A stretch of DNA of 37,185 bases, from assembly GCA_031267005.1 (NCBI GenBank), contig JAIRZX010000513.1, forward strand, positions 1-37,185, read 5' to 3'. Below, one piece after another: positions 3-27,176 of the stretch; position 1 is the stretch's first letter; the number at the start of each line of letters is the position of its first letter. This stretch comes from Deltaproteobacteria bacterium. GTDB lineage: Bacteria > Desulfobacterota > Desulfarculia > Adiutricales > Adiutricaceae. The notes beneath the pieces were generated by a model. That model saw only the letters and a list, made by a program, of their open reading frames with translations. It searched no databases and had not been told where the DNA came from. Position numbers and translations under genes: made by a program.

Positions 3-191
3 GCCCCGGCGTCCCGGGCGGCCCTGGATGCTGCCGAGTGCGCCAGAGGCGTCGCGCCCCGTTCCGGCGCGGCCGCTCCCGGCGTTTCCGGCGGGGCCTC
101 GGAACTCGCGGACGCGGCGGACGCCGAGGCCGCGAGGGACGCATGGGATGCCTGGGCCGGGGGTTCCGGCCGTAAAGGGGGCGGGCTTTGA
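3..191 (+). CDS. 3' end of a gene entering from the left edge (murD expected from dcw gene order only)
   Basis: The frame-3 reading (...ALDAAECARGVAPRSGAAAPGVSGGASELADAADAEAARDAWDAWAGGSGRKGGGL*) has G/C at most third positions. Its TGA at 189-191 overlaps the ftsW TTG start (TTGA). No diagnostic MurD motif is visible in the part present. Confidence 0.3.
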   Translation, partial: APASRAALDAAECARGVAPRSGAAAPGVSGGASELADAADAEAARDAWDAWAGGSGRKGGGL

Positions 192-1435
192 GCGGGCAGG
201 AAAAAGGCGCGGGTCCGGTGGACCTGAAGAGCTACCTGCGCGTGGACACGGTGCTCTTCTCCGTGGTGCTGCTCCTGGCCGGCGTGGGGCTGGCGGTTCT
301 TTTGAGCGCGAGCTACCTCAAGGCCGAGCTCTACGAGGACACGCCCTACTATTACCTAAACAGCCAGGCGCTGAGGCTCGCGATTGGCGCCGGGCTGGGC
401 TTCGCCGCCTTCATGGTCCCGGTGAGGTTCTGGATGTGGGCGGCCCCTGCCGTGGGCGCGCTCACGCTGGGGCTCCTGCTCCTTCCCTTCGTGCCGGGCT
501 TCCAGTATCAGGCCATGGGGGCCAGCCGGTGGATCCAGATAGGCGGCCTCTCGGTGCAGCCTTCGGAGTTCGCGAAGGCGGGGATAGTCGTCTACATGGC
601 CTGGTCGCTGGCGAACAAGGGGGAGCTCGCCCGCGGCTTCTGGTACGGCTTTTTCACGCATACCGTGGTTATAGCGGTCTTCGCCGGGCTGATCATCCTG
701 GAGAGGGATCTTGGCGGGGCGCTGGTGGCGTGCGTCATCATGGCGGGAATGATCTTCGCCTCGGGGCTGAAGTGGCGCTACATAGCGCTGTACGCGGGGC
801 TGATAGCGGCGGCCTCCTGGCAGTTCGTGCTTTCCTACGGGTACAGGGTGGCCAGGATCCGCGGCTGGCTCGACCCCTGGGCCGACCCCTACGGCGCCGG
901 CTACGTCATCCTGCACTCCTTCTACGCCTTCGCCAACGGCGGGCTGTTCGGACTGGGGCCGGGGGAGGGGCTGGAGAAGCAGTTCTTCATCCCCGAGATC
1001 CATACGGACTACATTTTCGCGGTGGTTGGCGAGGAGCTGGGCTTCGCGGGCGTGGCCCTGGTGGCCGGGCTGTTTTTGGCCTTCGCCCTCCGGGGGCTCT
1101 TCATCGCCAAGGCCGCTCCCCGGCTTCCCCATTACTACATAGCCATAGGGGCGACGCTGGCCGTGGCGGTCCCCGCCTTCATCAACATGGCGGTGGCGCT
1201 CTCGATAGTCCCGGCCAAGGGCCTGGCGCTCCCCTTCTTCAGCCACGGCGGCTCGAGCCTGGTGTCCTGCCTGGTCTGCACCGGGCTCCTCTTGAGGGTG
1301 GCCGCGGACGGCTGGGCCGACCAGGACCGGGAGGGGCCGCTTCCGGGCGCCAGGGATTCCCTTCCCGGCGCGCAGGCTCAGGCGTCCTTCTCCCCGCCGC
1401 CGCCGTCGGCTTCCGGACCGGGGGTCCGGCCGTGA
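188..1435 (+). CDS. ftsW: SEDS-family peptidoglycan polymerase FtsW
   Basis: 415-aa polytopic membrane ORF with SEDS motifs: GASRWIQIGGLSVQPSEFAK, DPWADPYGAGY, IPEIHTDYIFAVVGEELGF, LPFFSHGGSSL. It sits immediately upstream of murG. A TTG start follows the G-rich SD AAGGGGG. Confidence 0.9.
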   Translation: MSGQEKGAGPVDLKSYLRVDTVLFSVVLLLAGVGLAVLLSASYLKAELYEDTPYYYLNSQALRLAIGAGLGFAAFMVPVRFWMWAAPAVGALTLGLLLLPFVPGFQYQAMGASRWIQIGGLSVQPSEFAKAGIVVYMAWSLANKGELARGFWYGFFTHTVVIAVFAGLIILERDLGGALVACVIMAGMIFASGLKWRYIALYAGLIAAASWQFVLSYGYRVARIRGWLDPWADPYGAGYVILHSFYAFANGGLFGLGPGEGLEKQFFIPEIHTDYIFAVVGEELGFAGVALVAGLFLAFALRGLFIAKAAPRLPHYYIAIGATLAVAVPAFINMAVALSIVPAKGLALPFFSHGGSSLVSCLVCTGLLLRVAADGWADQDREGPLPGARDSLPGAQAQASFSPPPPSASGPGVRP

Positions 1436-2568
1436 CGGGGATAAGGATACTCATGGCCGCGGGCGGCACCGGGGGCCATATCATGCCGGCCGTGGCCGCG
1501 GCGCAGGCCATAAGGCAGCTGGACCCCGCGGCCGAGTTCCTGTTCGTGGGGGCGGGCCGCCCAGCGGAGGAGGCCGTGCTGGGCCCCGGCGGCTGGGAGC
1601 GCGCGTCGGTGAACGCCGCCCCCATCAAGGGAAAGGGCCCGCTGGCCAAGGCGAAGGGGGTCTTTCGCGCCGTGTCCGCCCTCTTCCAGGCCGCGGCCAT
1701 CGTCCGCCGCTTCAAGCCGGATTTGGTCTTCGGCGCCGGAGGCTACAGCTCAGGGCCGGTGGGCCTGGCCGCGAGGCTCTCTGGGGTCCCGCTTTTCATC
1801 CACGAGCAGAACCGCCGCCCGGGACTAACTAACCGCCTCCTCGCGAGGCTCAGCTCCAGGGTGTTTTTGGGCGACCCCGGCGCCGCGGGGCACTTCGCCC
1901 GCGCTAAAACCCTCTACGTCGGAAACCCCGTCCGCCCCGAAATTTTCGCGGACTCCCCCAAGGAGCCCTCCCCCGGAAAGCCGTTCACGCTTCTCGTACT
2001 TGGCGGGAGCCAGGGGGCGGAGAGCCTGAACCGGGCCGTGGGTTCCGCTCTGGCGGGCCTTAAGGGGCTCGGCGGCGTGAGGGTCATCCACCAGGCCGGG
2101 GCCGCCGGGGAGAAGTCCCTCCGGCCCCTTTACGAGGCTTCGGGCCTGGACTTCGAGCTGGGCGCCTTCTTCACGGACATGGCGAGGCTGTACCGCGAGG
2201 CGGATCTGGCGTTGTGCCGGGCGGGGGCCTTGACCCTGGCCGAGCTCGCGGCGGCCGGGGCGCCCTCGGCCCTGGTCCCGCTCCCCTGGGCCGCGGACGA
2301 CCACCAGACGCGGAACGCCGAGGCCTTCGAGGAGGCCGGGGCGGCGCTGACGGTGCCGGAGAAGGCCTTGACCGGCGAAAAGGTAGTCTCGTTAGTCGAG
2401 GGCTTCCTGGACGTGCCGGGGCGCCTCGCCCGGATGAGCAAGGCCGCCATGGGGCTGGCCAGGCGCGACTCCGCCGCGAGGATGGCCGCGGAAATCTACG
2501 CGGCGGCCAGCGCCCGCAGGGCCCGCAGCGGGAGGAAGGGCGTGGGCATGCCCCGGACGGCGCTGTGA
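1432..2568 (+). CDS. murG: UDP-GlcNAc:lipid I N-acetylglucosaminyltransferase MurG
   Basis: This is the C-terminal part of track ORF 28..2568. GTG at 1432 overlaps the ftsW stop (GTGA); an alternative ATG lies at 1453. The N-terminus IRILMAAGGTGGHIMPA carries the GGTGGH loop; also LVLGGSQGA and the C-terminal PWAADDHQTRNAEAF motif. Confidence 0.9.
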   Translation: MTGIRILMAAGGTGGHIMPAVAAAQAIRQLDPAAEFLFVGAGRPAEEAVLGPGGWERASVNAAPIKGKGPLAKAKGVFRAVSALFQAAAIVRRFKPDLVFGAGGYSSGPVGLAARLSGVPLFIHEQNRRPGLTNRLLARLSSRVFLGDPGAAGHFARAKTLYVGNPVRPEIFADSPKEPSPGKPFTLLVLGGSQGAESLNRAVGSALAGLKGLGGVRVIHQAGAAGEKSLRPLYEASGLDFELGAFFTDMARLYREADLALCRAGALTLAELAAAGAPSALVPLPWAADDHQTRNAEAFEEAGAALTVPEKALTGEKVVSLVEGFLDVPGRLARMSKAAMGLARRDSAARMAAEIYAAASARRARSGRKGVGMPRTAL

Positions 2569-2953
2569 AATGGTTGCGGGGGGCCCCGGCGGGAAGCGGG
2601 TCAGATAAGGGCTCGAAGAAACGGCTTGTTAGCGGAAGGAACAGATAGGGCTGGCGTTTTAGTCGGCGAAGGGGCAAGCGCGGCGTCCCCTGCGGAGGAA
2701 GCGGGGACTCGAAGCCGGACGAGTCCCGGAAAGAAAATTCAGGGTCTGCAGCGGGTTCTGGACTCCAGAACTCAAGTCTTAAAACCGAAAGCTGGACGCC
2801 GAGGGCGTTTAAGCGGGGTTCATGGAAAAGAGGCCGGGCTCCGCGCAGTCCGGGCTCCGGGAATAAGGCTCCGGGGGATCGGGCTCCGGGGATAAAGCCG
2901 CAGCGGCAACCAGGCCCCGAAGACCTAAAGTTGGGAAGGGAATTCCGTCCGGG

Positions 2954-4336
2954 ATGTACAGGAAAAGGCGCAACATACACTTCGTGGGCATAGGCGGCAT
3001 CGGCATGAGCGGCATAGCCGAGGTGCTCCACAATCTGGGGCACTCGGTGAGCGGCTCGGATCTGGCCGAAGGCGCCCAGACCAGGCGGCTCGCGGGACTG
3101 GGGATCGAGGTGCTCCTGGGCCACGACGCGTCCCACGTGAAGGGCGCGGACGTGGTCGTGGTCTCTTCGGCGGTGAAGGACGACAACCCCGAGGTGGCGG
3201 CCGCCCGCGGGCGCAGGATCCCGGTAATACCCCGGGCCGAAATGCTCTCGGAGCTGATGAGGCTCAAGACCTCCGTGGCCGTGGCCGGGAGCCACGGGAA
3301 GACCAGCACCTGCTCGCTTTTGGGGACGGTGCTCACGGAGGGCGGGCTGGATCCCACGCTGGTCATAGGCGGCAGGGTGGACAACCTGGGGCTGAACGCC
3401 CGCCTGGGCCAGGGCGACTACCTGGTAGCGGAGGCCGACGAGTCCGACGGGTCGTTCCTGCTCCTTTCGCCGACGGTGGCGGTGGTCACCAACATCGACC
3501 GGGAGCATATGAACTACTACCGGGACATGGACCACCTGCGCGAGACGTTCCTTACCTTCATAAACAGGGTGCCCTTCTACGGGGCCGCGATACTGTGCCT
3601 GGACGATCCCGGCGTCCAGGGGCTCATGCCCAGGGTGAAGAAGCGCTGCGTCACCTACGGGCTCTCGGCACAGTCGAACGTGACCGCCCGCAACATAGTC
3701 CGCGAGGGCTGGGGGCACTCCTTCGAGCTGTGGGCGGGGGGAGAGCCGAAGGGGGCGCTGAAGCTCAACATACCCGGCAGGCACAACGTGCTGAACGCGC
3801 TGGCGGCGGCGGCGGTCTCGATCGAGATGGGCGTGGGCTTCGAAGACCTCAAGCGCGGAGTGGAGCGGCTCTCCGGGGTGGGCCGCCGCTTCGAGAGGAA
3901 GGGCGAGGCGGGGGGCGTGAGCGTCCTGGACGACTACGGCCACCACCCGACGGAGATAAAGGCGACCTTGGCGGCGCTGGCAGAGACCTTCCCGGACAGG
4001 CGGCGGATCGTCGTGTTCCAGCCGCACAGGCATTCGAGGACGAGGGATCTCTTCGACGAGTTCGTAACCTCCTTCAACCAGGCGGATCTCCTGTGGATAG
4101 CCGACATCTACGGCGCGGGGGAGGAGCCCGCGGAGGGGGTGGACTCGAAGGCCCTGTGCGACGCCGTGCGGTCCCACGGCCACGGCGGGGCGAACTACGG
4201 GGGGAGGGTCTCCGAAATCCCCGGCGAGGTCGTGAAGGTTTTGAAGGAAGGCGACGTGGTCCTGACCTTGGGCGCCGGAAACGTCTGGGAGGCCGGGGCC
4301 GAGATTCTGAGAAGGCTCGGGGGGGAAGCCGGGTGA
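2954..4336 (+). CDS. murC: UDP-N-acetylmuramate--L-alanine ligase MurC
   Basis: MYRKRRNIHFVGIGGIGMSGIAEVL N-terminus, Mur-ligase P-loop VAGSHGKTST, AEADESDGSF, DDYGHHPTEI. Full-length 460 aa. Confidence 0.95.
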   Translation: MYRKRRNIHFVGIGGIGMSGIAEVLHNLGHSVSGSDLAEGAQTRRLAGLGIEVLLGHDASHVKGADVVVVSSAVKDDNPEVAAARGRRIPVIPRAEMLSELMRLKTSVAVAGSHGKTSTCSLLGTVLTEGGLDPTLVIGGRVDNLGLNARLGQGDYLVAEADESDGSFLLLSPTVAVVTNIDREHMNYYRDMDHLRETFLTFINRVPFYGAAILCLDDPGVQGLMPRVKKRCVTYGLSAQSNVTARNIVREGWGHSFELWAGGEPKGALKLNIPGRHNVLNALAAAAVSIEMGVGFEDLKRGVERLSGVGRRFERKGEAGGVSVLDDYGHHPTEIKATLAALAETFPDRRRIVVFQPHRHSRTRDLFDEFVTSFNQADLLWIADIYGAGEEPAEGVDSKALCDAVRSHGHGGANYGGRVSEIPGEVVKVLKEGDVVLTLGAGNVWEAGAEILRRLGGEAG

Positions 4337-4470
4337 GCGCGGCGGGCGGAGCGGCGCGGCGCCGGGTCTTTGCCGCCGGCCTTCCGGAGCGCCCGGGGGC
4401 CTCGTCGGCGGCCCGCCCCGCTTCGGGCCCGGTGGGAGGCGCGCCCCGCCGCGCGCGCGCCCTCGCGGGC

Positions 4471-5439
4471 ATGGATCCTGCGGCCCTGTCGCGGCTGGCC
4501 GGGGCTTCCCCGGTGCCCTTGGAAGCCTTGAAACCCCTGGGCGCCCTTACGAGCTTCAAGTGCGGCGGCCCGGCGGCCCTCTTCGGGCGGCCGGGGACCC
4601 TGGAGGAGCTGGAGCGGCTCCGGCTCTTCGCGCTGGACAATTCCCTCCCGTTCATGGTCCTGGGCGGCGGCAACAACGTCCTTTTCGACGATTTGGGCTT
4701 CAGGGGGCTGGCGGCCAGGCTTTCCGGGGAGTTGGGGCGCGTGTCCTTCGCGGGAGGCGGCCCCCTTTCCGGGCGGGGCGCCGCGGCCGTGACGGCGGGG
4801 GCCGGGGCGGCGCTTTCGGAAGTGGCCGACAAGGCCCGCGAGGCCGGGAGGGCGGGCTGGGCCCGGCTCCGCGGCATACCCGGCACGGTGGGCGGGGCCC
4901 TCGCGATGAACGCCGGGGCGGGTGGGGCGGAGGTTGGCCAGCTGGTTTCGGGCGTGACGGTCCTGGGCCCGGGCGGGCGTCGCGTAGTGGGGAGGGAAGA
5001 GGCGGGCTTCAGGTACCGCTGCTCGGACTTGGGCCTTATGGGCCCGATAGCCGAAGCCGAGTTCCTCCTGGGCGAGGAGGCCGCGGAAAGCGAAATCCTG
5101 GCGCTCGAGCGGGAAACTTTGGCCGCGAGGAAGGCGCGGCTCCCCGGGGGGCCTTCCGCTGGATCGGTTTTCAGGAACCCCGAGGGGGCCGAGGCCGCCA
5201 AGTGCGGGGGAAAGAGCGCCGGGAGGCTTATTGAGGAGTGCGGGCTGAAAGGCTCGGCCGTGGGAGGCGCGGTGATAAGCCCAAAGCACGCTAACGTGAT
5301 AGTGAACGCGGGCGGCGCCACGAGCTCGGAAATACGCGCCCTGGCCGGCAAGGCCAGGCTCGAGGTGCTGAAGCGGCACGGCGTGGAGCTCGTTTTGGAG
5401 ATACGCATGCTGGATTTGGGGGGGGAGAGCTACCCGTGA
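4471..5439 (+). CDS. murB: UDP-N-acetylenolpyruvoylglucosamine reductase MurB
   Basis: This is the C-terminal part of track ORF 3595..5439. Motifs: LTSFKCGGPA, FMVLGGGNNVLF, GIPGTVGGALAMNAGA, AGSVFRNP, GGAVISPKHANVIVN. I call the ATG at 4471. An in-frame GTG at 4333 overlapping the murC stop (GTGA) would add about 46 aa and cannot be excluded. Confidence 0.85.
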   Translation: MDPAALSRLAGASPVPLEALKPLGALTSFKCGGPAALFGRPGTLEELERLRLFALDNSLPFMVLGGGNNVLFDDLGFRGLAARLSGELGRVSFAGGGPLSGRGAAAVTAGAGAALSEVADKAREAGRAGWARLRGIPGTVGGALAMNAGAGGAEVGQLVSGVTVLGPGGRRVVGREEAGFRYRCSDLGLMGPIAEAEFLLGEEAAESEILALERETLAARKARLPGGPSAGSVFRNPEGAEAAKCGGKSAGRLIEECGLKGSAVGGAVISPKHANVIVNAGGATSSEIRALAGKARLEVLKRHGVELVLEIRMLDLGGESYP

Positions 5440-6596
5440 CGAATTTCCGCACAACCAGGACCCCCGTGGGCCAGGGGGGGGCGAGCCGCCTCGGGCGCAA
5501 GCAGATAACGCCTCTGGGCCGCGCCCGCCGCGTGGCGGAGGCCGCGGGCACGGCGCAGCCGCCGCGCTCCTCCTCGTCGGGCTCCTCCGCTTCCCCGTCC
5601 CCCGCCTCCGGACGGGGGAACCTCAAAGCCGCGCAGGCCAAGGCCTCCGGGCAGAAGGGCGCCCCGCCCAAGCCCCGCCGGGCCCCCGGCGAGTCCGGGT
5701 CGCTGGCCAAGGCGCTCAAGGCCTCCCCCGGGGCGCTCCGCCGGTTCGCGTCCCTGTGCTTCTACGCCATAGTGGCCACCGCCGCGCTCGCGGCGGTCTC
5801 CGCCGGCTGCCTTTACGCCTACTATTCCTTTTCGGACAGCGACTATTTCCTCATCAAGCGCCACGACATCAGGGGCATTTTCCGCGTATCCCGCCAGGAG
5901 GTGCTTTCCGCCGCCGGGCTCGACCGCCCGGTAAACACCCTGACCTTCGACACGCAGGCGGCGGTGAGGGGGCTCAAAAGCCTTTCCTGGGTGGAGGAGG
6001 CAGACATCTCCCGCGCCCCCCTACCGGACGGCATCACGGTCAGGGTCACCGAATACAAGCCCAGGGCGGTAGTCAGCCTGGACAGGCTCTACTACCTCGA
6101 CGGCAAGGGCCGGCCCTTCAAGAGCCTGGAGCCGGGCGAGAACCCCGACAAGCCGATTGTGAGCGGCTTCACCCTGGACGAGCTCCTGAACGAGGGGCCC
6201 CTGGCGGGACAGGCGGTTTCCGAGGTCTTCGAGCTCATGGACATTTTGGACCGGCGTTCCGACGACTGGAGGCTTGACGAGATTTCCGAGATAAGGCGCG
6301 ATCCGGACATAGGCGTCACCCTCTTCACGCGCCGCTCGGGCATAGAGGCGCGCCTGGGCTTCGGGCCTTTCGCCGAGAAGGCCGCCAGGCTCGGGAAGGT
6401 GACCGGCCGCCTGCGGGCCAGGGGGCATTTGGCCGGCGTGACCCATATGAACCTGGAGTGCGCCCCCCGGGTGACCGTGCGCTGGGCCAAGGGCATGAAG
6501 CCCCCCGACGTGGGCGTGCCCGAGGAGGAGGAGGGCGTCGAGGGCTACGACGGCGAGGTCCCCCCTGCCCTGATGGCGGGCTCGGCCGCGGGCTAG
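5436..6596 (+). CDS. ftsQ: Cell division protein FtsQ (long low-complexity cytoplasmic N-terminus, one TM, POTRA plus beta domain)
   Basis: GTG at 5436 overlaps the murB stop (GTGA). TM segment FASLCFYAIVATAALAAVSAGCLYAYY, followed by a POTRA-like block IKRHDIRGIFRVSRQEVLSAAGLDRPVNTLTFDTQAAVRGLKSLSWVEEADISRAPLPDGITVRVTEYKPRAVV. Located between murB and ftsA. Confidence 0.8.
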   Translation: MTNFRTTRTPVGQGGASRLGRKQITPLGRARRVAEAAGTAQPPRSSSSGSSASPSPASGRGNLKAAQAKASGQKGAPPKPRRAPGESGSLAKALKASPGALRRFASLCFYAIVATAALAAVSAGCLYAYYSFSDSDYFLIKRHDIRGIFRVSRQEVLSAAGLDRPVNTLTFDTQAAVRGLKSLSWVEEADISRAPLPDGITVRVTEYKPRAVVSLDRLYYLDGKGRPFKSLEPGENPDKPIVSGFTLDELLNEGPLAGQAVSEVFELMDILDRRSDDWRLDEISEIRRDPDIGVTLFTRRSGIEARLGFGPFAEKAARLGKVTGRLRARGHLAGVTHMNLECAPRVTVRWAKGMKPPDVGVPEEEEGVEGYDGEVPPALMAGSAAG

Positions 6597-6711
6597 CCTT
6601 TTAACGGCCGGAGGCCCGGTGGGGCCCGGCGCGGGGCGTTTCGGTCGGCAGGGATTTTTTTTGACCCCGGGCCGGGGCTCTTGGCCCCCTTCCGGAAGGA
6701 GACTGGCGGAC

Positions 6712-7959
6712 ATGACGGATCAGGAGCGAGAGAGGCTGGTGGGCCTGGACATCGGGACGACGAAGGTCACCTGCGTGGCGGCGGTGGAGAACGACTTCGG
6801 GGGGCTGGAGATAATTGGGGTCGGGAACGTGCCGTCCCTGGGCATGACCCGGGGCCAGGTCACTAACATGGAGGCCGCGAAGTCCTCCATAGCCAAGGCC
6901 GTGGAAGAGTGCAGGCGCATGGCCGGCTGCCGCATCGAGGACGTGTACGTGGGCATAGCCGGGGGGCACATAGCGAGCTTCAACAGCCACGGGATCGTGG
7001 CCGTCCGGGACAAGGGGGAGAGGCTGGTAACCGAGGAGGACAAGCGCCGGGCCGTTGAGGCGGCGGAGACCCTGAACATCCCCCAGGGGAGGATCATCGT
7101 CCAGAGCATCCCTCAGGAGTACAAGGTCGACGACGTGGAGGGCATACTGGATCCCCTGAACATGGTGGGGGTCCGCCTCGAGGTGAAGGTCCACGTTATC
7201 ACCTCGGCTTTGAACGCGTACCAGAACATCGTGAACTGCGTGACCGACGCGGATTTGAACATGAAGGAGATGATCTTGGAGTCGCTCGCCTCCGCCGAGG
7301 CGGTGCTGACCCCCCAGGAGATGGACGTGGGCGCGGCCGTGCTGGACATAGGCGGCGGGACCTCGGACGTGGCGATTTTTTCCGGAGGATCGGTCAAGTA
7401 CTCCGGCGTCGTGGCCCAGGGCGGGGACAACCTGACCCAGGACATAGCCTTGGGGCTACGCACCTCGCTCGAGACGTCCGAGCGCTTCAAGGTGGCCCGG
7501 GGCGCGCTCCGCCCGGACCTCTTAAGCGCCGAGGGCCTGGTCATCCCCTCTTTGGGCGGCCAGCAGACCGAGGTGGACCCCGCCTTCTTCTGCGCGATCA
7601 TGGAAAAGCGAATGACGGACATCTTGGAGTGCGTGAACATGGAGTTCGTGAAAAGCGGCCTGGACCAGGACGTCCACGAGGTGGTGCTGACCGGCGGCTC
7701 TTCCATGCTGCCGGGGCTGGTGGATCTGGCCCGGCACGTCCTGAACCGCGGCGTGAGGCTGGGCGAGCCCCGCATAGACGGCGGCCTGAGCTCGATGGTA
7801 AACGATCCGCGCTTCTCCACAGCGATAGGGCTCGTCATGTACGGCCACCGCGCCGAACGCGAGTCGCGGGATCCCTCCCAGAGGGGGGCCGGCGCTGGCG
7901 GGCAGTCGCTTCCGGGCAGGATGATCCGGGGCTTCAAGAGAATTTTCACGGGCGACTAG
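6712..7959 (+). CDS. ftsA: Cell division protein FtsA (copy 1)
   Basis: ATG at 6712 follows the SD GGAAGGAG. Actin-fold phosphate-1 motif LVGLDIGTTKV, SHS2/1C insert region (EEDKRRAVEAAE...IPQEYKVDDVEGILDPLNMVGVRLEVKVHVIT), LDIGGGTSDVAIF, GGDNLTQDI, VLTGGSSMLPGL. The C-terminal amphipathic peptide GRMIRGFKRIFTGD looks like a membrane-targeting helix. Confidence 0.9.
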   Translation: MTDQERERLVGLDIGTTKVTCVAAVENDFGGLEIIGVGNVPSLGMTRGQVTNMEAAKSSIAKAVEECRRMAGCRIEDVYVGIAGGHIASFNSHGIVAVRDKGERLVTEEDKRRAVEAAETLNIPQGRIIVQSIPQEYKVDDVEGILDPLNMVGVRLEVKVHVITSALNAYQNIVNCVTDADLNMKEMILESLASAEAVLTPQEMDVGAAVLDIGGGTSDVAIFSGGSVKYSGVVAQGGDNLTQDIALGLRTSLETSERFKVARGALRPDLLSAEGLVIPSLGGQQTEVDPAFFCAIMEKRMTDILECVNMEFVKSGLDQDVHEVVLTGGSSMLPGLVDLARHVLNRGVRLGEPRIDGGLSSMVNDPRFSTAIGLVMYGHRAERESRDPSQRGAGAGGQSLPGRMIRGFKRIFTGD

Positions 7960-8158
7960 CCCGTGCACGGCTCCCGGAGATCCCCCCGGGCTTCCGGTTT
8001 CGGATTTCAGCTTCCGTTTTGCGCCTTGCCTTCAGCGCCTTTGCCCCCTTCCCTAGGCCTTGCTTTCAGGGCCTTCGCCCTTTGCCTTCCGCCTTGCGTT
8101 CGGGGCCCTCGCACTCTGCCTTGCGCCCCGGGCTTTAAGCTCGGGGCCCCTGCCCTCT

Positions 8159-8235
8159 GCCTTGCGCCTTAGGCTTTGCGCCTTGCGCCTTGCGCCTTGC
8201 GCCTTACGCCTTACGCCTTACGCCTTACGCCTTGC
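8159..8235. repeat. Tandem array of a 7-bp unit GCCTTRC (11 units, the last 8 essentially perfect)
   Basis: Read directly: gccttgc gccttag gctttgc gccttgc gccttgc gccttgc gccttac gccttac gccttac gccttac gccttgc. It is embedded in a wider GCCTT-rich tract (about 8020-8240) that also holds a 27-bp imperfect direct repeat at 8101-8127 and 8142-8168. Confidence 0.9.
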
Positions 8236-8353
8236 GTCTAGCGGCGGTCGCGGCCCCGGACGCGGCCAAACGCGCTTCAGCGAACGAAACGGCGGTCCCC
8301 CGCCCCGACCCGCCGCCCCTGCTTACGGGGTGGGGGGGGAAAGGAAACCGGTT

Positions 8354-9607
8354 ATGCCCGAGATCATCACGGCGCTCGACATTGGCACCACGAAAATTTG
8401 CTGCATCATAGCTTCCCCGGACGACAACGGGGGGGTCAACATCGTAGGCATCGGGAACGCCCCCTCCAGGGGCATGTCCCGGGGCATGGTCACCAACGTC
8501 GACCGCACGGTGAGTTCCATCAAGGCGGCGGTGACAGAAGCCGAGCGGATGGCCGGGTGCAGCGTGGGCAAGGTGATGCTGGGGCTGGCCGGGGGTTCCG
8601 TCAACTGCTACAACTCGACGGGGGTCGTGGGCGTGCGCGACCAGCGCAACCGCATCATCAGCGAGGAGGACAAGCGCCGCGCCATAGAGTCGGCCGTGGC
8701 GGGCGACATCCCACAGGACCGGGAGCCGCTGCACACGATCGAGCAGGAGTACACGGTCGACGGGCAGACCGGCATCAAGGACCCGGTCGGCATGATGGGC
8801 ATGCGCCTGGAAGTGAACATGCACATCACGACGGTATCCCTCTCGGCGCTGCAGAACGTGCTCAACTGCGCCCGCCAGGCGCAGCTCCAGGTGGACGACG
8901 ACGACGTGGTCCTGGAATCGCTGGCCTCCGCCGAAGCGGTCCTGACCCCGGCCGAGATGGGCATGGGCGTGGCGATTCTCGATTTCGGGGGGGGAACCAC
9001 GGACATAGGCGTCTTCGCCAAGGGATGCATCCGCCACACGAAAGTCCTTAACCTGGGGGGCGACAGCCTCACCAGGGACATCTTCATGACGCTCAGGACC
9101 AGCATGGACGAGGCGGAGATGCTGAAGATTAACGACGGATGCTGCCTGTCCGCCCTGCTCCCGGACGAGGAGGAGATAATTTCCGTGCCCGGGCCGGACG
9201 GGGTCCCCGTGGCGGAGGTGAGCCGCCACATCCTCTGCGACATACTGGAGAGCCGCGTGGAGGAGATAATGGGGCACGTCTCCCAGGAACTAATCATGAG
9301 CGGCTTCGACGACCAGGTAATGGAGATAGTCATAACTGGCGGCTCTTCGCTCCTGCGCGGCGTGCCGGAGCTGGCGGAGCAGATCTTCGACCGCCCCGTC
9401 CGCGTGGGCTATCCGGCGGGCATGGGCGGGCTCTCCCAGCTGGTGGCGAGCCCGAAGTTTTCGACCGGGCTGGGGCTTATCCTTTACGGGCTGAAGAACC
9501 ACGACGAGCTCGCCCGCCAGGCCGGGCCCGGCGCCTCAGGCCGCAAGGGGGGCGGGCTCCTTGACGTCATCGTGAGCAGGATTTTCGGAAGGAGCGGGCA
9601 GGCCTGA
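8354..9607 (+). CDS. Second full-length FtsA paralogue
   Basis: ATG at 8354 follows GGGGGGAAAGGAAA. It has the same motif series as copy 1: ALDIGTTKI, EEDKRRAIESAV, IEQEYTVDGQTGIKDPVGMMGMRLEVNMHITT, LESLASAEAVLTPAEM, LDFGGGTTDIGVF, GGDSLTRDI, VITGGSSLLRGV, SPKFSTGLGLILYG. Its C-terminal hydrophobic/basic peptide is GLLDVIVSRIFGRSGQA. The track ORF start at 8060 reads through the repeat tract and is rejected. Confidence 0.85.
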   Translation: MPEIITALDIGTTKICCIIASPDDNGGVNIVGIGNAPSRGMSRGMVTNVDRTVSSIKAAVTEAERMAGCSVGKVMLGLAGGSVNCYNSTGVVGVRDQRNRIISEEDKRRAIESAVAGDIPQDREPLHTIEQEYTVDGQTGIKDPVGMMGMRLEVNMHITTVSLSALQNVLNCARQAQLQVDDDDVVLESLASAEAVLTPAEMGMGVAILDFGGGTTDIGVFAKGCIRHTKVLNLGGDSLTRDIFMTLRTSMDEAEMLKINDGCCLSALLPDEEEIISVPGPDGVPVAEVSRHILCDILESRVEEIMGHVSQELIMSGFDDQVMEIVITGGSSLLRGVPELAEQIFDRPVRVGYPAGMGGLSQLVASPKFSTGLGLILYGLKNHDELARQAGPGASGRKGGGLLDVIVSRIFGRSGQA

Positions 9608-10408
9608 CGCGGGGGCGGCCGGACCGAGGCCCGGAGGGTTCCCCCGGGGTCCAGGCGGGAGGCTTCGGCCCAAGGGTCCGCCCGGACGGCTCGCCGGCGG
9701 CCGGGGCAAAGCGGGAACAAGCCCGAATCGCAATGGAGCCCGCTCAGGCAAAGGCATATTCCGGAAAAATGCCGTGGAGGCCGGTTTAAATAACTCGGCC
9801 AGCCGCGAGGGCGCCCAGGGTTCCCCGATACCGGCGGAACCGCGCGGCTTGGCCGTTCCGGAAGGATTAGGGGGGCCGCACCAGCGAAATCTTCCGAAGA
9901 TTTTTAAATGGGGCGGCCGCAAATCAGACTGAAATGCCGTCGGCGTCCCTAAAATTGACGGAAGCGCGAATTTTGGAGCGACTGTTTATCCGATCGCCTC
10001 CCTGAAGGCTTCCGGGGGGGGGCGGAGCGGCGGGGAAGCCCCGGCCCCGGGGCGGCCGCAACGCGCAAAGCAGCGTGCAGGTCTTCCCGGCGCCGCGGCC
10101 GGGATCTCCGCGAGAGCCGGCGGGGCGCGGGAACCGGCCAGGGCCCGGCGCCGCGGGCGCGCCGGATCCTCCAGGCCCCGACGCGGCGGAATTTCGTGGG
10201 AAGGTGGAGATACGGAGGCGCCAGACCGGGACCGCCGGGCGCTGTTTGGACGAATAATTTAGGCCAGGTTGGGATCCTTGCCACGGGTGGTGCGCGCTTT
10301 CGGAGTCGCGGCCCGGGCCGGACCGCGGCGGCGGCGGGCCTCCGCCCGCGGGGGTTCGTTTAGGTCGGGCGGGCGGGGAAAAAAAATACTCCCCGGCGTG
10401 ATAATCGC

Positions 10409-10437
10409 TTGACAGGGGGGGGCCCTTCTGGGAGAAT
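10409..10437 (+). promoter_or_regulatory. Sigma70-like promoter candidate upstream of ftsZ
   Basis: TTGACA (10409-10414), a 17-nt spacer, then GAGAAT (10432-10437). It is preceded by an A-rich tract (gggaaaaaaaaata) and lies about 125 nt upstream of the ftsZ ATG. Confidence 0.4.
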
Positions 10438-10563
10438 GGAAGACAAGGCAAATCAGTCGGTCGCCCAGGCAATACGTATCGGCGTCTGAGAGAACAGTTA
10501 CAGGGAAGCATCGCGGATCGCCCGGTCGACAAGTCGGCCTTGCGCCCAGAGGAGACAGGGACC

Positions 10564-12018
10564 ATGGAAGACGACTTCGAATTCGTGCGTCCGGATTCAG
10601 AACCGGCGGCGGGCGGCCCGGCGTCCGATTCCGGTCCGTCCGCCGCCGGCCACAGTATCAGCGTCATCGGCATTGGCGGGTGCGGCAACAAGACTGTCAA
10701 CCACATGATCCAGACGAACGGGGTTAACGGCATAAAGTACGTGGCCGCCAACTCCGATCCCCAGGATCTGAAGAATTCGCTCGCCCCCACCAAGATCCTC
10801 CTGGGCCCGAAGACTACGAGGAGCAAGGGGTGCGGCGGCAAGCCCGAAAGGGGCCGCATAGCCACCGAGGAGGTGCTGGACGAGATAAGGAGGGAGCTCG
10901 CGGGAACGGAGCTGCTCTTCATCGCGGCGGGCATGGGCGGCGGGACCGGGAGCGGCGGCGCCCCCGTCGTGGCCCAGGCCATGGGCGCTTTGGAGGAGCC
11001 CCCCTTGATCGTTTCGGTGGTGACCACCCCCTTTTCCTGGGAGGCCAACCGCTGGAAGATTTCCGACAGGGTGGTGGGAGAGCTCACCGCCTGCAGCAAC
11101 AGCATAATCACCGTCGCCAACTCGAAGGTCGAGACCCACGTGCCCAGGGACTCCACCATGATCGCGGCCTACGCCGCGGCGAACGACATCATCCTGAAGG
11201 CGGTCTCCGGGATAATCGAGCTCCTGACCCGCGAGGGCAACGTGAACCTGGACTTCGGCGACCTGGAGACAGCGCTTTCCTGCAACGGCCCGGCGCTCAT
11301 GGGCTACGGCGAGGCCTCCGGGGACAACCGCGCCAAGAAGGCCCTCCAGAACGCGATAACCTGCCCGCTCATGACGGACCACTCCATCAAGGGCGCGAAG
11401 ATGCTTATCGTGAACATGGTGACCAGCAGCGACTTCACCCTGGACGAGTACATCTCCATCAACACCGAGGCCACCAAGGAAATCGATCCCGAGGGCCAGG
11501 TGTTCACCGGCTGGGCCATCGACGAGTCCCAGAACGAGTCCGGCTCCATCCGCGTCACCATCATCGCGACCGGCCTCTACAACGAGGAAGCCTGGACGGC
11601 CGTCGACGAGCCTGAGATGGGGCCCGACGTGGTGGTTGATCTGGATAACATTGTCGAGGAGACGGAGGTTACGCTGCGCCCGGAGCCCGAGCCGCCCCGC
11701 CGCGACCTCTCGCCGCACCGCATGGCGCCCGCGCGGCCCGGCGCGGCCGGGACGTCGGCCCCCGCGCCCCAGTACCCCAGGGCCCTGTCCCCGCAGCAGC
11801 CGGGATTCGGCGTCCAGCCGCAGGCGCGCCCCGCGCTCCCGCGCGACCCCTCCGCGGGGGTCCTGGCCCCGCCCCGGAGTCCCCGCCGCCAGGGAGTCTA
11901 CCCTCCGCCGGGCCCCGGCCAGGCCAAGAGTTACGAGAAGAGTTCCGGGGTCGACCCGATTAACCAGGACTCCAAGTATTACGAGACCCCCGCCTTCTTC
12001 AGGAACAAGGCCAGCTGA
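10564..12018 (+). CDS. ftsZ: Cell division GTPase FtsZ (divergent nucleotide-binding loops, long Pro-rich linker, conserved C-terminal peptide)
   Basis: ATG at 10564 follows the SD GAGGAGA. Motifs: SVIGIGGCGNKTVNHM (T1), TRSKGCGGKPERG (T4), tubulin signature AAGMGGGTGSGGAPVVA, NLDFGDLETAL (T7), RVTIIATGL. A Pro/Arg/Ala-rich linker of about 120 aa follows, and the protein ends YETPAFFRNKAS. Confidence 0.9.
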   Translation: MEDDFEFVRPDSEPAAGGPASDSGPSAAGHSISVIGIGGCGNKTVNHMIQTNGVNGIKYVAANSDPQDLKNSLAPTKILLGPKTTRSKGCGGKPERGRIATEEVLDEIRRELAGTELLFIAAGMGGGTGSGGAPVVAQAMGALEEPPLIVSVVTTPFSWEANRWKISDRVVGELTACSNSIITVANSKVETHVPRDSTMIAAYAAANDIILKAVSGIIELLTREGNVNLDFGDLETALSCNGPALMGYGEASGDNRAKKALQNAITCPLMTDHSIKGAKMLIVNMVTSSDFTLDEYISINTEATKEIDPEGQVFTGWAIDESQNESGSIRVTIIATGLYNEEAWTAVDEPEMGPDVVVDLDNIVEETEVTLRPEPEPPRRDLSPHRMAPARPGAAGTSAPAPQYPRALSPQQPGFGVQPQARPALPRDPSAGVLAPPRSPRRQGVYPPPGPGQAKSYEKSSGVDPINQDSKYYETPAFFRNKAS

Positions 12019-12038
12019 CGGCCCTGGTCCCGCGCGAA

Positions 12039-12060
12039 TTTTGCGGCGGCATCCGCAAAA
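12039..12060 (+). terminator. Weak hairpin just after the ftsZ stop
   Basis: ttttgcgg-cggcat-ccgcaaaa: an 8-bp stem and 6-nt loop, 20 nt after the stop. There is no U-tract on the + strand, so function is uncertain. Confidence 0.2.
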
Positions 12061-12732
12061 GCAAAAGTCCACTCTGGCCCCGCCGCTCACGACACCTCTT
12101 GCGGCTGGGCCAGGTGGATTTTTTTGCGTAAAGCCCCAGCTCCCCGCCGCCCCCCGAATAGGGAAGGCCCCGAAACAGGCGCCGCCGCCGACTTATCTTC
12201 CGGCGTCCCCCCCCCTTTCGGCGCGGGCGCCCGCCTTGGCAGCCGAACCGCGCGATGCCGCGCGCTCGTTTGGCCCCGTAATTTTTACGCCGTCATTCCC
12301 CCGTTCCGATTGACGGAAGTTTGCCGCGGAGCCATAAGTTCCGCCGCCCCGCAGGTCCCGCCGCGCCGACGCGCTGTCTCCCGCTACGAACCGGAATTAT
12401 GGTCAGAACGGCCCGAAGGGACTGGAGGTTCCTAAGGGACGGGGGGGGGCAAAGGGACGGGAGGTTCCGAAGGGACGGAAACCAGCGGGCGACGCAAGGG
12501 CGCCAACGCCCTCCAAGCCTCAAAGGAGCTCAAAGCCCCAAAGTATCGAAAGGGCGAAAGGCTCCGGAGGTTCCAAAGGGCCCGAAGGCCATCTCCCGGC
12601 CGATGGCCTCGACTTCAACGCCGTCCGCAAGCGCTCCCGACGGGAATTTTACCGCCTTCTCCCGCCTTGAGGCGACGCCCCCCTAAGCGAGGATGCCTTG
12701 GACCACCGGGAATTCCATTGCCGCGTGCCGCT

Positions 12733-14526
12733 ATGAAAGGCGCTGTCCGCGATGCCGGGCGCGGTCCCGCGGGGCGCGGGCGCGGCGGGGGGCCGGTCGC
12801 CGCTGAGAGGGGCGCCGCGAAAAAGGATCCCGGCGGGCGGGTTTCCGCGGCGATGGCCTGGCCGGGCTCCTACCGGGCCGGAATGTCGTCGCTCGGGTAC
12901 CTCTGGTGCTACGCTATCGCGAACCGTCGGGCCGACGCGCTTGCCGAAAGGGTCTTCCTGCCGGAAGGGCCTTCGGAGCCGGCGAGATCACTGGAGAGCG
13001 GGAGGGCGCTCGGGTCCTTCGATCTGGTCACCGGTTCCCTTTCCTGGGAGAACGACTACTGGCTCTTCCCCGAGATGTTGCGCCGTGGCGGGCTGGAGCC
13101 CGAAAGGTCGCTCCGGGAGGAGCGCGGCTCTCCCGCGAGGCCCGTCGTCCTGGCAGGTGGCGTGGGAGTCTGGTCCAACCCCTGGGCCATGTTCCCCTTC
13201 GTCGATCTGGTCATTACGGGCGAGGGCGAAATCTGCTGGGACGCGGCGCTGGACATCTGCTCCAGGAAGGGGTTCCGGGAGATGCCGGCCCCGGAGCGCG
13301 TCAAGGCGCTTGCCGAGGGGGTCCCGGGTGCCCTGGCCCCGGGGCTCATGCCGCGCTCCCTTACCGAACCTGACGGGATCGACGGCTTGGGCCGCGCCCT
13401 GTCCGCCTTCGCGCCGGCCGCGCCGCCGAGGATGCAATGGCCGTTCGCGGAGGGCTCGGGGCCGCCCCGCTCGACCGTATGGGCGCCGGGAGCGGAGTTT
13501 TCCGGGATGCGGCTCGTGGAAATAAGCCGCGGCTGCCCCAGGGGCTGCCGCTTCTGCCTGGCGGGGCAGCTATACCGCCCGCACCGCCCGTGGAGCGCCG
13601 AATCGGTCGTGGATGCCGTTACGGCCCCGAACCCCTGGTCGGGGGAGGACCCGTTCCCCCGGGACGCGCGGGTGGGGCTGGTGAGCCCGGCCGTAGCGGA
13701 TCACCCCGGATTCGAGGAGATTGTCGAAAGGCTCGCGGAAGCGGGAAGGAGGGTGTCGTTCTCCTCGCTGCGCCTGTCCGGCCTGACAGAGAGATCGGCG
13801 CGGCTTTTGGGTTCGGCGGGCCTTAAGGGGGCGGCCGTGGCCCCGGAGGGGGGGACTGAGGCCATGCGCTCGAGGATCAACAAGAACCTTTCCGAGAGGG
13901 AGATTGCCGAAGGGGCGCGGGTCCTCCGCGAGGCCGGGCTGAAGACCCTGAAGCTGTATTTCATGTACGGCCTCCCCGGGGAGACGGACGGGGACCTGGA
14001 AGCCGCGGCGGCGCTCGCCGGGCGCATACGCGCCTCAGTGTCCTCGAAAGGTTCGGGCCCTAGGGTCGAGGCGTCCTTCGCCTGCTTCGTCCCGAAGCCC
14101 CATACCCCCTTCGAGGACGAGCCGCTCCTGGCGGAGCGCGAGATACGACGCCGGGCTGAAGTCCTGAAGAGAAGCTTCGCCCGGAAGGGGGGCGTGGGGC
14201 TTAAGGTCGAAGGCGCCCGGGCGGCTCTCGTCCAAGGGGTCATAGCCAGGGGGGGCCCGGAAGCCTACGGCATGGTCCGGGCGCTTCTGAAGACGGGCGG
14301 GCGGCCGGGACCGGCGCTGAAGCTCGCGGGGGTCGACGGAAGCGGGCCCCTGTTCTCCCGGCCGGGACCCGGCGCCCCCCGGCCCTGGCGGGTCGTAGCC
14401 CCCCCGGCGGGCCACCGTTACCTCGAGGAAGAGGCCCGGAAGGCCTGCCTTTCGCGGGAGAGCCCGCCCTGCCCACCCCGCGGGCGATGCGGCAGGTGCG
14501 GGGCGTGCGGCGCGTTCCCGCCGTAA
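12733..14526 (+). CDS. Radical SAM protein with an N-terminal B12-binding-like/Rossmann-like region (resembles the uncharacterised TIGR03960-type family)
   Basis: CxxxCxxC cluster motif in EISRGCPRGCRFCLAGQLYRP. The N-terminal block AWPGSYRAGMSSLGYLWCY resembles the FPDxYEVGMSxLG start of that family. Also PVVLAGGV...DLVITGEGE. The start is uncertain: the ATG at 12733 has no obvious SD and the ORF is open from 12667. Confidence 0.75.
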   Translation: MKGAVRDAGRGPAGRGRGGGPVAAERGAAKKDPGGRVSAAMAWPGSYRAGMSSLGYLWCYAIANRRADALAERVFLPEGPSEPARSLESGRALGSFDLVTGSLSWENDYWLFPEMLRRGGLEPERSLREERGSPARPVVLAGGVGVWSNPWAMFPFVDLVITGEGEICWDAALDICSRKGFREMPAPERVKALAEGVPGALAPGLMPRSLTEPDGIDGLGRALSAFAPAAPPRMQWPFAEGSGPPRSTVWAPGAEFSGMRLVEISRGCPRGCRFCLAGQLYRPHRPWSAESVVDAVTAPNPWSGEDPFPRDARVGLVSPAVADHPGFEEIVERLAEAGRRVSFSSLRLSGLTERSARLLGSAGLKGAAVAPEGGTEAMRSRINKNLSEREIAEGARVLREAGLKTLKLYFMYGLPGETDGDLEAAAALAGRIRASVSSKGSGPRVEASFACFVPKPHTPFEDEPLLAEREIRRRAEVLKRSFARKGGVGLKVEGARAALVQGVIARGGPEAYGMVRALLKTGGRPGPALKLAGVDGSGPLFSRPGPGAPRPWRVVAPPAGHRYLEEEARKACLSRESPPCPPRGRCGRCGACGAFPP

Positions 14527-19638: not shown

Positions 19639-20087
19639 AGCCCTCCGGCGCTATTTGTGCCAGCGGCCGGCGCCTCGCGCGTTGTCCCTTGCCGGCTTGC
19701 CCGGAAACGCAACGGCGGGTCCGGAAGAAGCCGGTCTTCCCTCCAGCGCGCGGCGGGGCTGTTCGCCGGCGAGGCGAGGCGGGGCCCGGCCCGTGCGCGA
19801 CCGGATACGGGGGCGGTCCTGGGCGGGTTGTTGCGGGCACGCTTGAGGGGCGCGGGTAAGCCGACCGGCTCGCCGTTGCGCCGAAGGGGGGCCGGGGCGG
19901 CTGTTAGGCCCTTTGCGCAGACCCTTACGCCTCGATATTTTCCTGGACTTCAATCTCCTCCGCCCGGAGATTATCCGCCCCGGACCTCCTCCCCCTTAGG
20001 TCCCGTTTCCGGTTCTCCTTTCTTTCCCTGCCTTGGAGGCGGCTGTATTCATTTGCCGGGCTGGCGGGTTGGCGGGTTGGCGTCAAT

Positions 20088-20116
20088 TTGACACGGCAGC
20101 AGCGGAGACGTATAAT
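20088..20116 (+). promoter_or_regulatory. Perfect consensus sigma70 promoter
   Basis: TTGACA (20088-20093), exactly 17 nt, then TATAAT (20111-20116). It is followed by AGGAGG (20127-20132) 7 nt before the ATG at 20140. Confidence 0.6.
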
Positions 20117-20139
20117 ATAGAAAAAAAGGAGGCTTGGAT

Positions 20140-26916: not shown

Positions 26917-27176
26917 GAGGGCGGCGGCTGGCAATATAGCCCCAGCAAGAACGAAGCTATTGCGCGGTAAGGGTTTACGAGATAAATCGGCTGGGAGCCG
27001 CCAGTTCCGCCGAGCTTTCGCCGCAGCGGGCAAAACACTCGGTTATTTTCGCGCGCGTTAAGAACCTGAGATCGGCTTCCCAGCTGTCGGTTGCTTGGAG
27101 GGCGTTCCGCCCAGTCAATTCCGCAAGCCGGGAGGGCGCTCCCACTGGCGGAATGGCAAAGCGGACGGAAATAGGG

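Follow-up and report, generated by a model that had tools for sequence, protein, structure and literature searches.

A conserved tandem pair of diverged FtsA paralogs in a termite-gut lineage of Deltaproteobacteria, with a possible division of labor

Introduction

FtsA, the actin-like membrane anchor of the divisome, is normally encoded by a single-copy gene, and to our knowledge almost all bacteria carry one ftsA. A 37,185-nt stretch of DNA from a Deltaproteobacteria bacterium of the family Adiutricaceae (GenBank assembly GCA_031267005.1, contig JAIRZX010000513.1, positions 1 to 37,185 of the forward strand; hereafter, the window) carries two, ftsA1 and ftsA2, head to tail within its cluster of division and cell wall (dcw) genes. 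The locus therefore raises the question of where the second copy came from, why both copies were kept, and how two FtsAs might share the work that is usually done by one. The reading that we favor, to which we assign a probability of roughly 55%, is that the two genes arose by one duplication, that both were retained, and that the job of FtsA was divided between them, with FtsA2 probably acting as the main tether and FtsA1 as a modulator that co-assembles with it.

How the oligomeric state of FtsA (minirings, single filaments, or antiparallel double filaments) activates the divisome has been studied almost exclusively by means of point mutants of E. coli FtsA. The lineage described here offers a natural pair of FtsAs that has long been kept together under selection, possibly as a two-part FtsA membrane anchor. 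Multi-paralog cytoskeletal systems are known for FtsZ and MreB, and the pair would add the actin-like anchor of the divisome to them.

Both genes encode members of the FtsA family

The initial annotation of the window, made from its letters and open reading frames (ORFs), had placed two FtsA-type genes at the following coordinates, given here with our names and annotation:

6712-7959, + strand: ftsA1, ATG at 6712, 415 aa, the promoter-proximal FtsA paralog
8354-9607, + strand: ftsA2, ATG at 8354, 417 aa, the ftsZ-proximal FtsA paralog

Each start is preceded, ~9-10 nt upstream, by a Shine-Dalgarno-like sequence. Searches with hidden Markov models (HMMs) confirmed the placement. Both proteins matched Pfam FtsA, and both covered the full length of the ftsA equivalog model TIGR01174 (FtsA1, 363.9 bits; FtsA2, 393.5 bits; cut-off, 175.85) and exceeded the cut-off of 25.4 bits for Pfam SHS2_FTSA (89.7 and 91.1 bits, respectively), the 1C subdomain that replaces 1B of actin. 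Scores against the PilM model TIGR01175 were 31.9 bits for FtsA1 and 19.8 bits for FtsA2 (cut-off, 133), those against the MreB/Mbl models TIGR00904 and NF010539 were 36-49 bits (cut-offs, 293-366), and the eutJ model was likewise far under its cut-off for both. No pilN, pilO, pilP, or pilQ gene was found among the annotated window neighbors of the pair. When FtsA2 was searched against the PDB with phmmer, the best match was E. coli FtsA (7q6d, 250 bits).

AlphaFold2 (AF2) monomer models, each built from a 66-sequence alignment, had a predicted local distance difference test score (pLDDT) of 89.7 for FtsA1 and 91.9 for FtsA2, with predicted TM-scores of 0.86 and 0.87. Foldseek comparison of the models with the PDB returned E. 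coli FtsA 7q6d as the top match of FtsA1 (TMt 0.91) and 7q6g and 7q6i as those of FtsA2 (TMt 0.92-0.94). Overall, the FtsAs of E. coli, Xenorhabdus, and Vibrio led the ranking (TMt 0.91-0.94), followed by those of S. aureus and T. maritima, and the models superposed on solved FtsAs over ~385 columns with a root-mean-square deviation of 1.4-2.3 Å. TM-scores to PilM (0.63-0.79) and MreB (0.60-0.70) were lower. Both genes are true FtsA-family members and encode neither PilM nor MreB; HMM scores and fold together place copy 2, for which membership in PilM or another actin-like family had been entertained, in FtsA.

The motifs quoted in the initial annotation (LDIGTTK, LD(I/F)GGGT(S/T)D, and TGGSS) are all present in the window proteins. 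Both have intact phosphate-1 (DxGT.K), phosphate-2 (DxGGGTxD), and adenosine (TGG) motifs, which are conserved at 90% or more in the A1 and A2 clades to which FtsA1 and FtsA2 belong, where five of five ATP-motif segments are intact in each. The C-terminal peptides, earlier described as resembling membrane-targeting sequences, are predicted by AF2 to form helices at residues 402-412 of FtsA1 and 403-413 of FtsA2, each following a disordered linker of low pLDDT. Their hydrophobic moments are 0.99 and 0.67, the helix of FtsA1 (RMIRGFKRIFT) has a net charge of +4, that of FtsA2 is weakly charged, shorter, and of greater hydrophobicity, and an amphipathic C-terminal tail is predicted in both clades, all of which fits a putative membrane anchor. 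Each with FtsA fold, ATP motifs, and putative membrane helix, both copies have been retained as apparently working genes.

One old duplication in a termite-gut lineage

FtsA1 and FtsA2 share 45% protein identity over 411 aa, within the 40-50% that had been estimated by eye. Their genes are 57% identical as DNA and 47% identical at third codon positions, synonymous sites between them are saturated, and the longest exact nucleotide run is 18 nt. Therefore, the pair reflects neither a recent duplication, nor gene conversion, nor an assembly artifact, and the proposal of an old duplication held up. The long identical peptide blocks to which the initial annotation had drawn attention are real, but ESLASAEAVLTP is conserved across related FtsAs generally and so is uninformative on this pair. 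Gene conversion as the source of such blocks was ruled out, since the same codon is used at identical residues at a frequency of 0.53, as compared to 0.54 expected from codon usage.

Bootstrapped neighbor-joining trees of up to 226 FtsAs (Kimura distances) recovered the A1 sequences as monophyletic in 98-100% of bootstraps and the A2 sequences in 100%, with A1 and A2 as sisters in 72-89%. They join a few other termite-gut sequences in one clade with 100% support, and the next group outward includes Ca. Adiutrix, which has a single ftsA in the canonical order ftsQ-ftsA-ftsZ. Distance matrices of A1 (P0001-P0019) and A2 (P0121-P0139) correlate with r = 0.82 and the sub-clade structure of one mirrors that of the other, as would be expected from a single duplication. 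As far as sequence comparison can tell, ftsA1 and ftsA2 are thus shown to descend from one tandem duplication in the ancestor of a lower-termite-gut "Deltaproteobacteria" lineage, after the split from Ca. Adiutrix.

The pair is the rule in that lineage. When FtsA2 was used to scan GTDB genomes, one per species, five close relatives emerged (L001-L005 in our numbering of related loci, L001-L014, L095, and L096), all of them metagenome-assembled genomes (MAGs) named "Deltaproteobacteria bacterium" with the prefixes Gx485, Roe453, Nm470, and Pcl387. Three of these prefixes denote the lower termites Glyptotermes sp. (Gx485), Roisinitermes ebogoensis (Roe453), and Neotermes meruensis (Nm470) (PMC11707648). 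The order ftsQ-ftsA1-ftsA2 occurred in five of the five MAGs, with ortholog identities of 56-90% for A1 and 65-90% for A2, as compared to 45-47% for A1/A2 cross-matches. Adjacency was confirmed on three more contigs, L007 (the deepest branch), L095, and L096, so that the pair was seen directly on eight related contigs from different termite metagenomes. A search of 5.8 billion protein clusters returned 19 A1-type clusters (52-92% identical to the window protein) and ~20 A2-type clusters (57-92%), all other matches being at most 53% identical. At least 12 A1/A2 pairs come from contigs of equal length, and from such agreement in length about six further tandem pairs are inferred. Hence the expectation that related genomes might carry the same arrangement was borne out, and the tandem pair is not a one-off.

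Both copies also appear to be maintained. Among the window and L001-L004, ratios of nonsynonymous to synonymous substitution (dN/dS; Nei-Gojobori method), made conservative by the extreme bias in third-position G+C (GC3), were 0.12-0.24 for ftsA1 and 0.09-0.27 for ftsA2 (0.09-0.23 in comparisons with the window), as compared to 0.16-0.38 for ftsQ. By this measure, both ftsA copies are under purifying selection. One copy might still be thought to be decaying, or the tandem to be an artifact of assembly or binning, and the general prior that MAG contigs can be chimeric is the one point in favor. That explanation is effectively refuted: both ORFs are intact on eight of the eight related contigs inspected, apart from the additional pairs inferred; dN/dS is well below 1 for both copies (0.09-0.24); the motifs are intact; and the copies are 57% identical as DNA, with no long exact repeats. 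Copy 2, in particular, is not the decaying duplicate that had been considered.

Outside the lineage the arrangement was not encountered. An alignment-based scan of metagenome contigs yielded ftsA at 80 unrelated loci, with 41-50% identity to FtsA2; among the 50 with at least 1.3 kb on both sides, none had a second ftsA or a second ftsZ, which argues that the arrangement is not a chance feature. In the open-access literature we found no description of tandem or paralogous ftsA, the papers retrieved dealing with the biochemistry of E. coli FtsA and with FtsZ paralogs. A conserved, diverged tandem FtsA pair thus seems, as far as we could find, not to have been described before. The earlier suggestion of an undescribed arrangement stands in that members of the lineage have only been auto-annotated as "FtsA" twice, but the pair is no peculiarity of this genome, being common throughout the lineage.

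Differences between the two copies at putative functional surfaces

The two copies were compared with 184 other FtsAs. Conservation of at least 90% in that set holds for 161 columns; 105 of these are retained in the A1 clade and 107 in the A2 clade, and those that were lost are partly different. Within subdomain 1C, the residues D, E, and H occupy E. coli positions 124, 126, and 129 in 99-100% of the 184 other FtsAs and in 100% of the A2 clade. The A1 clade has G or another residue at 124, D or another residue at 126 (variable), and Q at 129 in 100% of its members. FtsA2, that is, keeps the canonical 1C motif D-R-E..H, and in FtsA1 this "DRE..H" is altered. E124A of E. coli is an FtsN-suppressor mutation in 1C, and antiparallel double filaments of FtsA owe nearly all of their lateral interface to 1C (PMC7613929).

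A helix of subdomain 2B, E. coli segment 294-304, differs as well. It belongs to the pocket for the FtsZ tail in a model that agrees with genetic screens (bioRxiv 10.1101/2023.12.19.572389). In the A2 clade, CDIL..R.EEI is conserved in at least 90% of members, and in the A1 clade one residue only reaches that level; in the window the helix reads CDILESRVEEI in FtsA2 and CAIMEKRMTDI in FtsA1. More generally, among subdomains, conservation is highest in 1C in both clades (51% of columns at ≥85%) and lowest in 2B of A1 (30%). Fixed clade-specific (type-II) differences number 13, six of which lie in 1C. Since A1 departs both at the position of E124, where mutation bypasses FtsN, and in the modeled FtsZ-tail pocket, the two copies may amount to ready-made separation-of-function variants.

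The tails also differ in character. A1-clade tails have a net charge of +2 to +5 (≥+3 in 17 of 19) and a hydrophobic moment of 0.55-1.2. Those of the A2 clade, typically a GFFxxIFDRIL-type helix, tend toward lower charge (0 to +4 net; ≤+2 in 12 of 19), shorter length, and greater hydrophobicity, with the proviso that in six deep A2 members the stretch of highest moment is the lysine-rich linker and not the terminal helix.

These patterns bear on one alternative, that the two proteins are redundant or condition-specific isoforms, both complete tethers of FtsZ that are kept for dosage or for differing conditions such as growth phase or host association, and that do not co-assemble. All hallmarks of a complete FtsA are found in both copies, and E. 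coli and B. subtilis tolerate several FtsZ anchors. However, plain redundancy rarely outlasts divergence to 45% identity with dN/dS of ~0.1-0.2 in both copies, and each has lost about one-third of the otherwise well-conserved sites, partly different ones. We regard isoforms as unlikely.

Another alternative is that FtsA1 has been co-opted for work outside division, for example in another actin-like scaffold at the membrane, and merely still resides in the dcw cluster. The altered 1C motif and relaxed 2B pocket would suit such a change of employment, and PilM, of type IV pilus assembly, shows that an FtsA-type fold can serve other machines. Distantly related to FtsA, PilM has a 1C-type subdomain that binds, in the cytoplasm, a short peptide of a bitopic partner (PMC7613929). 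The TIGR01175 scores and TM-scores exclude both window FtsAs from that family. Moreover, the place of FtsA1 between ftsQ and ftsA2 is kept in every contig examined, its ftsA equivalog score is twice the cut-off and its scores for pilM and mreB are far under theirs, and no partner genes of another machine lie nearby. Recruitment away from division is accordingly very unlikely in our estimation.

FtsZ and the variation in copy number

The ring protein to which both FtsAs might bind is encoded downstream:

10564-12018, + strand: ftsZ, 484 aa, Pfam Tubulin + FtsZ_C

Its start is the ATG at 10564, corrected from 10561. The gene is single-copy within the 37-kb window, and its product, which scored 275.5 bits against TIGR00065, just under the cut-off of 295.2, contains a long linker rich in Pro and ends in the conserved tail peptide DSKYYETPAFFRNKAS; the tail peptide is also written NQDSKYYETPAFFRNKAS. 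The form DSK(F/Y)Y(D/E)TPxF(F/L)RNKA is kept in all full-length FtsZs of the two-ftsA lineage. The FtsZ core is less conserved: its dN/dS was 0.23-0.48, versus 0.09-0.24 for the FtsAs in most of the same genome pairs, and the window and L001 are 77% identical in FtsZ core, versus 90% in both FtsAs. By these estimates, the FtsZ core of the two-ftsA lineage is evolving faster than either FtsA.

Numbers of ftsA-type and ftsZ-type genes at related loci (coordinates are those of each contig) were as follows:

Window, L003-L005, L007, and L096: 2 ftsA-type, 1 ftsZ-type
L001: 2 ftsA-type; 3 ftsZ-type, two of them short and lacking the tail peptide (7624-9840)
L095: 3 ftsA-type, 1 ftsZ-type
L013: at least 3 ftsA-type in tandem (57-3290), 1 ftsZ-type
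L010: 2 ftsA-type, the upstream copy (6074-7237) without a C-terminal helix; at least 1 ftsZ-type, where the contig ends
L009: 1 ftsA-type, 3 ftsZ-type (9392-14044)
L011 (6212-9180) and L012 (4572-7165): 1 ftsA-type, 2 ftsZ-type
L014 (Ca. Adiutrix): 1 ftsA-type, 1 ftsZ-type

The third ftsA of L095 (5809-7008) lies between A1 and A2 and overlaps the start of A2 by 8 nt. It is 44% identical to the A2 of the same contig, has a degenerate phosphate-2 motif (LLEMGAGCTGL), and lacks the C-terminal helix; it derives from A2. Several of the extra tandem ftsZ-family proteins in relatives, at 312-376 aa, are short and have no FtsA-binding peptide at the C terminus. No second ftsZ was found in the 80 unrelated metagenomic ftsA loci described above (50 with adequate flanks). 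The premise of the initial annotation, a single FtsZ with one C-terminal tail, therefore holds for the window, where the tail is conserved, and fails in L001 with its three ftsZ-type genes.

Such variation invites the thought that each FtsA is dedicated to a different FtsZ paralog, in which case FtsA1 may serve an FtsZ-like protein encoded elsewhere in the genome. The two extra short ftsZ-like genes of L001, which lie between ftsA2 and ftsZ, the sister-group contigs with two or three ftsZ (L009, L011, and L012), and the weaker constraint on the putative FtsZ-tail pocket of FtsA1 are all compatible with this. Yet most two-ftsA contigs (the window, L003, L004, L005, L007, and L096) have one ftsZ at the locus, the extra FtsZ-like proteins are without the tail peptide by which FtsA would bind them, and the copy numbers of ftsA and ftsZ do not co-vary (1A+3Z, 1A+2Z, 2A+1Z, 2A+3Z, and 3A+1Z). 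Dedicated partners are, on balance, improbable.

Repeated tandem amplification of ftsA and ftsZ, together with the fast FtsZ core, points to a division machinery under remodeling in this termite-gut clade. In a bolder form of the co-assembly idea, FtsA1 and FtsA2 would form an obligate heteromeric filament, and the divisome of the clade would have been rebuilt around sets of FtsA (two to three) and FtsZ (one to three) paralogs with a fast-evolving FtsZ. The lateral 1C-1C contact of the antiparallel double filament, normally symmetric, may here join FtsA1 in one strand, or in alternate subunits, to FtsA2 in the other, and the rebuilt divisome could go with an unusual shape of the cells, an unusual division plane, or a life attached to the host. 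We offer this bolder form as speculation that probably goes too far.

Spacers, promoters, and expression of the pair

The segments between the genes are as follows:

7960-8353, no strand assigned: spacer between ftsA1 and ftsA2, 394 nt, GC-rich and of low complexity
9608-10563, no strand assigned: gap between ftsA2 and ftsZ, 956 nt, no credible gene
10409-10437, + strand: sigma-70-type promoter-like site, by consensus match and conservation

The initial annotation had taken the spacer as a sign that copy 2 is separately regulated. This did not find support: no convincing sigma-70-type promoter was called in the 394-nt spacer (apart from the site before ftsZ, the sole hit lies within ftsA2), no terminator-like site was called after ftsA1 or ftsA2, and the spacer is hypervariable. 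It contains degenerate 34/41-nt repeats at 8022-8177 (TRF and a repeat finder) and an array of ~11 copies of the heptamer GCCTTGC/GCCTTAC at 8159-8236. Among relatives it measures 91-571 nt, and only its last ~40 nt show any conservation of sequence; their spacers are likewise GC-rich and repetitive, with unrelated sequences, and are only 91-94 nt long in the deep relatives L005 and L007. Because the spacer is so variable and so short in the deep relatives, the long spacer of the window is a local feature, and co-transcription of ftsA1 and ftsA2 is at least as likely as separate regulation and simpler to suppose. For the isoforms considered above, the short spacer of the deep relatives likewise argues for co-expression of the copies, although the long, variable spacer of the window could hide a non-sigma-70 promoter missed by the scan.

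The spacer was also considered as the remnant of a third ftsA like that of L095, but no relic was found. Just 5' of the ftsA2 ribosome-binding site, at 8295-8340, lies a short GC-rich, hairpin-like element, CCGCCGCCCC-T/G-GC-N4-5-GGG, the sole part of the spacer that the window shares with L001-L003. It could affect translation of ftsA2 or RNA processing.

The gap before ftsZ has no ORF with a coding GC3 pattern, and because Rfam and tRNA scans of the whole window gave no match, it holds no known RNA. Lost ftsZ-like genes, such as those at this place in L001, were considered and rejected, because tblastn turned up no remnant of an FtsZ- or FtsA-like gene. Conservation with the closest relative is confined to the last ~186 nt. 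Gaps of comparable size occur in L003, L005, L007, and L096, so that the length recurs and the sequence does not. About 125 nt 5' of the ftsZ ATG is the promoter-like site TTGACA-17-TGnGAGAAT, which agrees with the consensus at 10 of 12 positions and carries the TG of an extended -10; both hexamers and their spacing are kept in L001, L003, and L004. The site is probably ftsZ's own promoter.

A proposed division of labor and its place among known systems

We propose that the two FtsAs divide the job of FtsA instead of staying redundant. FtsA2, which keeps the surfaces by which model FtsAs would meet the FtsZ tail (the 2B helix) and late divisome partners (1C D-R-E..H), is most likely the main Z-ring tether and recruiter. 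In FtsA1 both surfaces appear changed or relaxed, and its predicted membrane helix is far more cationic. Since 1C is the most conserved part of FtsA1 and forms the lateral interface of the double filaments in solved structures, FtsA1 most likely co-assembles with FtsA2 into mixed or paired filaments at the membrane. In them, FtsA1 would adjust how the FtsA layer beneath a single FtsZ ring oligomerizes and how strongly that layer binds the membrane. Both genes would probably be co-transcribed from the dcw operon, and ftsZ would have an additional promoter of its own.

Several observations weigh against this proposal. The division of labor is drawn from patterns of conservation only, in which type-II sites are few (13), and the enrichment of these sites in 1C, although suggestive, is not significant when normalized to conserved columns (P = 0.08-0.09). 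Window FtsA1 retains the equivalent of R300 and has a conservative E-to-D change at 303, so its binding of FtsZ may be normal. The copy that lies further from outgroups is not the same one in all sub-lineages: a uniformly less diverged A2 was found in the sub-lineage of the window and the reverse in another, and "A2 canonical, A1 derived" may not be valid across the whole clade. In addition, all members are known from MAGs or metagenome contigs alone, and the tree was built by neighbor joining on Kimura distances rather than by maximum likelihood.

Compared to the canonical single FtsA (E. coli, Vibrio maritimus, T. maritima, and S. aureus; structures 7Q6D, 7Q6F/7Q6I, 4A2A, and 3WQT), the window proteins are alike in HMM family, in the four-subdomain fold with 1C in place of 1B, in ATP motifs, in the C-terminal amphipathic helix after a flexible linker, and in the position between ftsQ and ftsZ. 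They are unlike it in that two diverged tandem copies are inherited together, of which A1 has replaced the otherwise invariant D-R-E..H of 1C and relaxed its 2B helix. Use of more than one anchor has a parallel in non-homologous FtsZ anchors that coexist, FtsA with ZipA in E. coli and FtsA with SepF/EzrA in B. subtilis (see PMC8178401 and PMC7613929). As in those cases, the single C-terminal tail peptide of one FtsZ would serve more than one tether at the membrane. However, FtsA1 and FtsA2 are paralogous and could co-polymerize, which ZipA and SepF cannot do with FtsA.

Duplication of a core cytoskeletal gene of division, with the copies kept and diverged, is also seen in the truncated FtsZ paralogs of Hyphomicrobiales (bioRxiv 10.1101/2025.09.29.679267; for an overview of the FtsZ family, see PMC9871819). 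Relatives of the window, too, have tandem, partly truncated ftsZ genes, but what the window itself duplicates is the actin-like anchor and not the tubulin-like ring protein. MreB, Mbl, and MreBH of B. subtilis are membrane-binding actin-like paralogs that are thought to act in mixed assemblies. They resemble the FtsA pair as a set of bacterial actin-like paralogs on the membrane, and an integrative Mbl-MreB model (9a5t) was among the Foldseek matches of FtsA1 and FtsA2. Unlike the pair, they belong to an elongasome family, do not lie in tandem within the dcw cluster, and have no 1C.

The remainder of the dcw cluster and of the window

Upstream of the pair, the window contains:

188-1435, + strand: ftsW, Pfam FTSW_RODA_SPOVE
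1432-2568, + strand: murG, Pfam Glyco_transf_28/28_C
2954-4336, + strand: murC, Pfam Mur_ligase N/M/C
~4333-5439, + strand: murB, Pfam FAD_binding_4 + MurB_C
5436-6596, + strand: ftsQ, 386-aa ORF with a GTG start (the true start may be further downstream), Pfam POTRA_1 + FtsQ_DivIB_C

The order is thus ftsW-murG-murC-murB-ftsQ-ftsA1-ftsA2-ftsZ, with both ftsA genes between ftsQ and ftsZ, in the distal part of the dcw cluster. Related loci share the upstream dcw gene order, and the ftsQ orthologs of L001-L005 are 51-80% identical to that of the window. Downstream of ftsZ are a radical-SAM gene, a GH3 hydrolase gene, cdsA, and dxr. The radical-SAM gene (12667-14526; Radical_SAM_N2 + Radical_SAM) directly follows ftsZ, and the same gene is found there in L009 and L095; at the Ca. 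Adiutrix locus L014 the gene after ftsZ is a shorter one of the radical-SAM type (288 aa; Radical_SAM is its only Pfam match). A radical-SAM gene is a conserved neighbor of the dcw end in this group. The presence of nrdD and nrdG further along the window indicates that the bacterium is an anaerobe.

Window G+C is ~68%. Patches of low G+C (0.49-0.56 versus ~0.68) with few credible ORFs occur at 20000-21000, 27000-29000, and 33000-34000. Within them are an HTH/transposase-like ORF (20134-20559) and, at 28425-28817, a fragment that resembles a PD-(D/E)XK nuclease, and they may be remnants of inserted elements. Finally, an ORF at 34811-35452, unrelated to the ftsA pair, encodes a Pfam Imm_superinfect (superinfection-immunity) domain followed by a Pro-rich tail.

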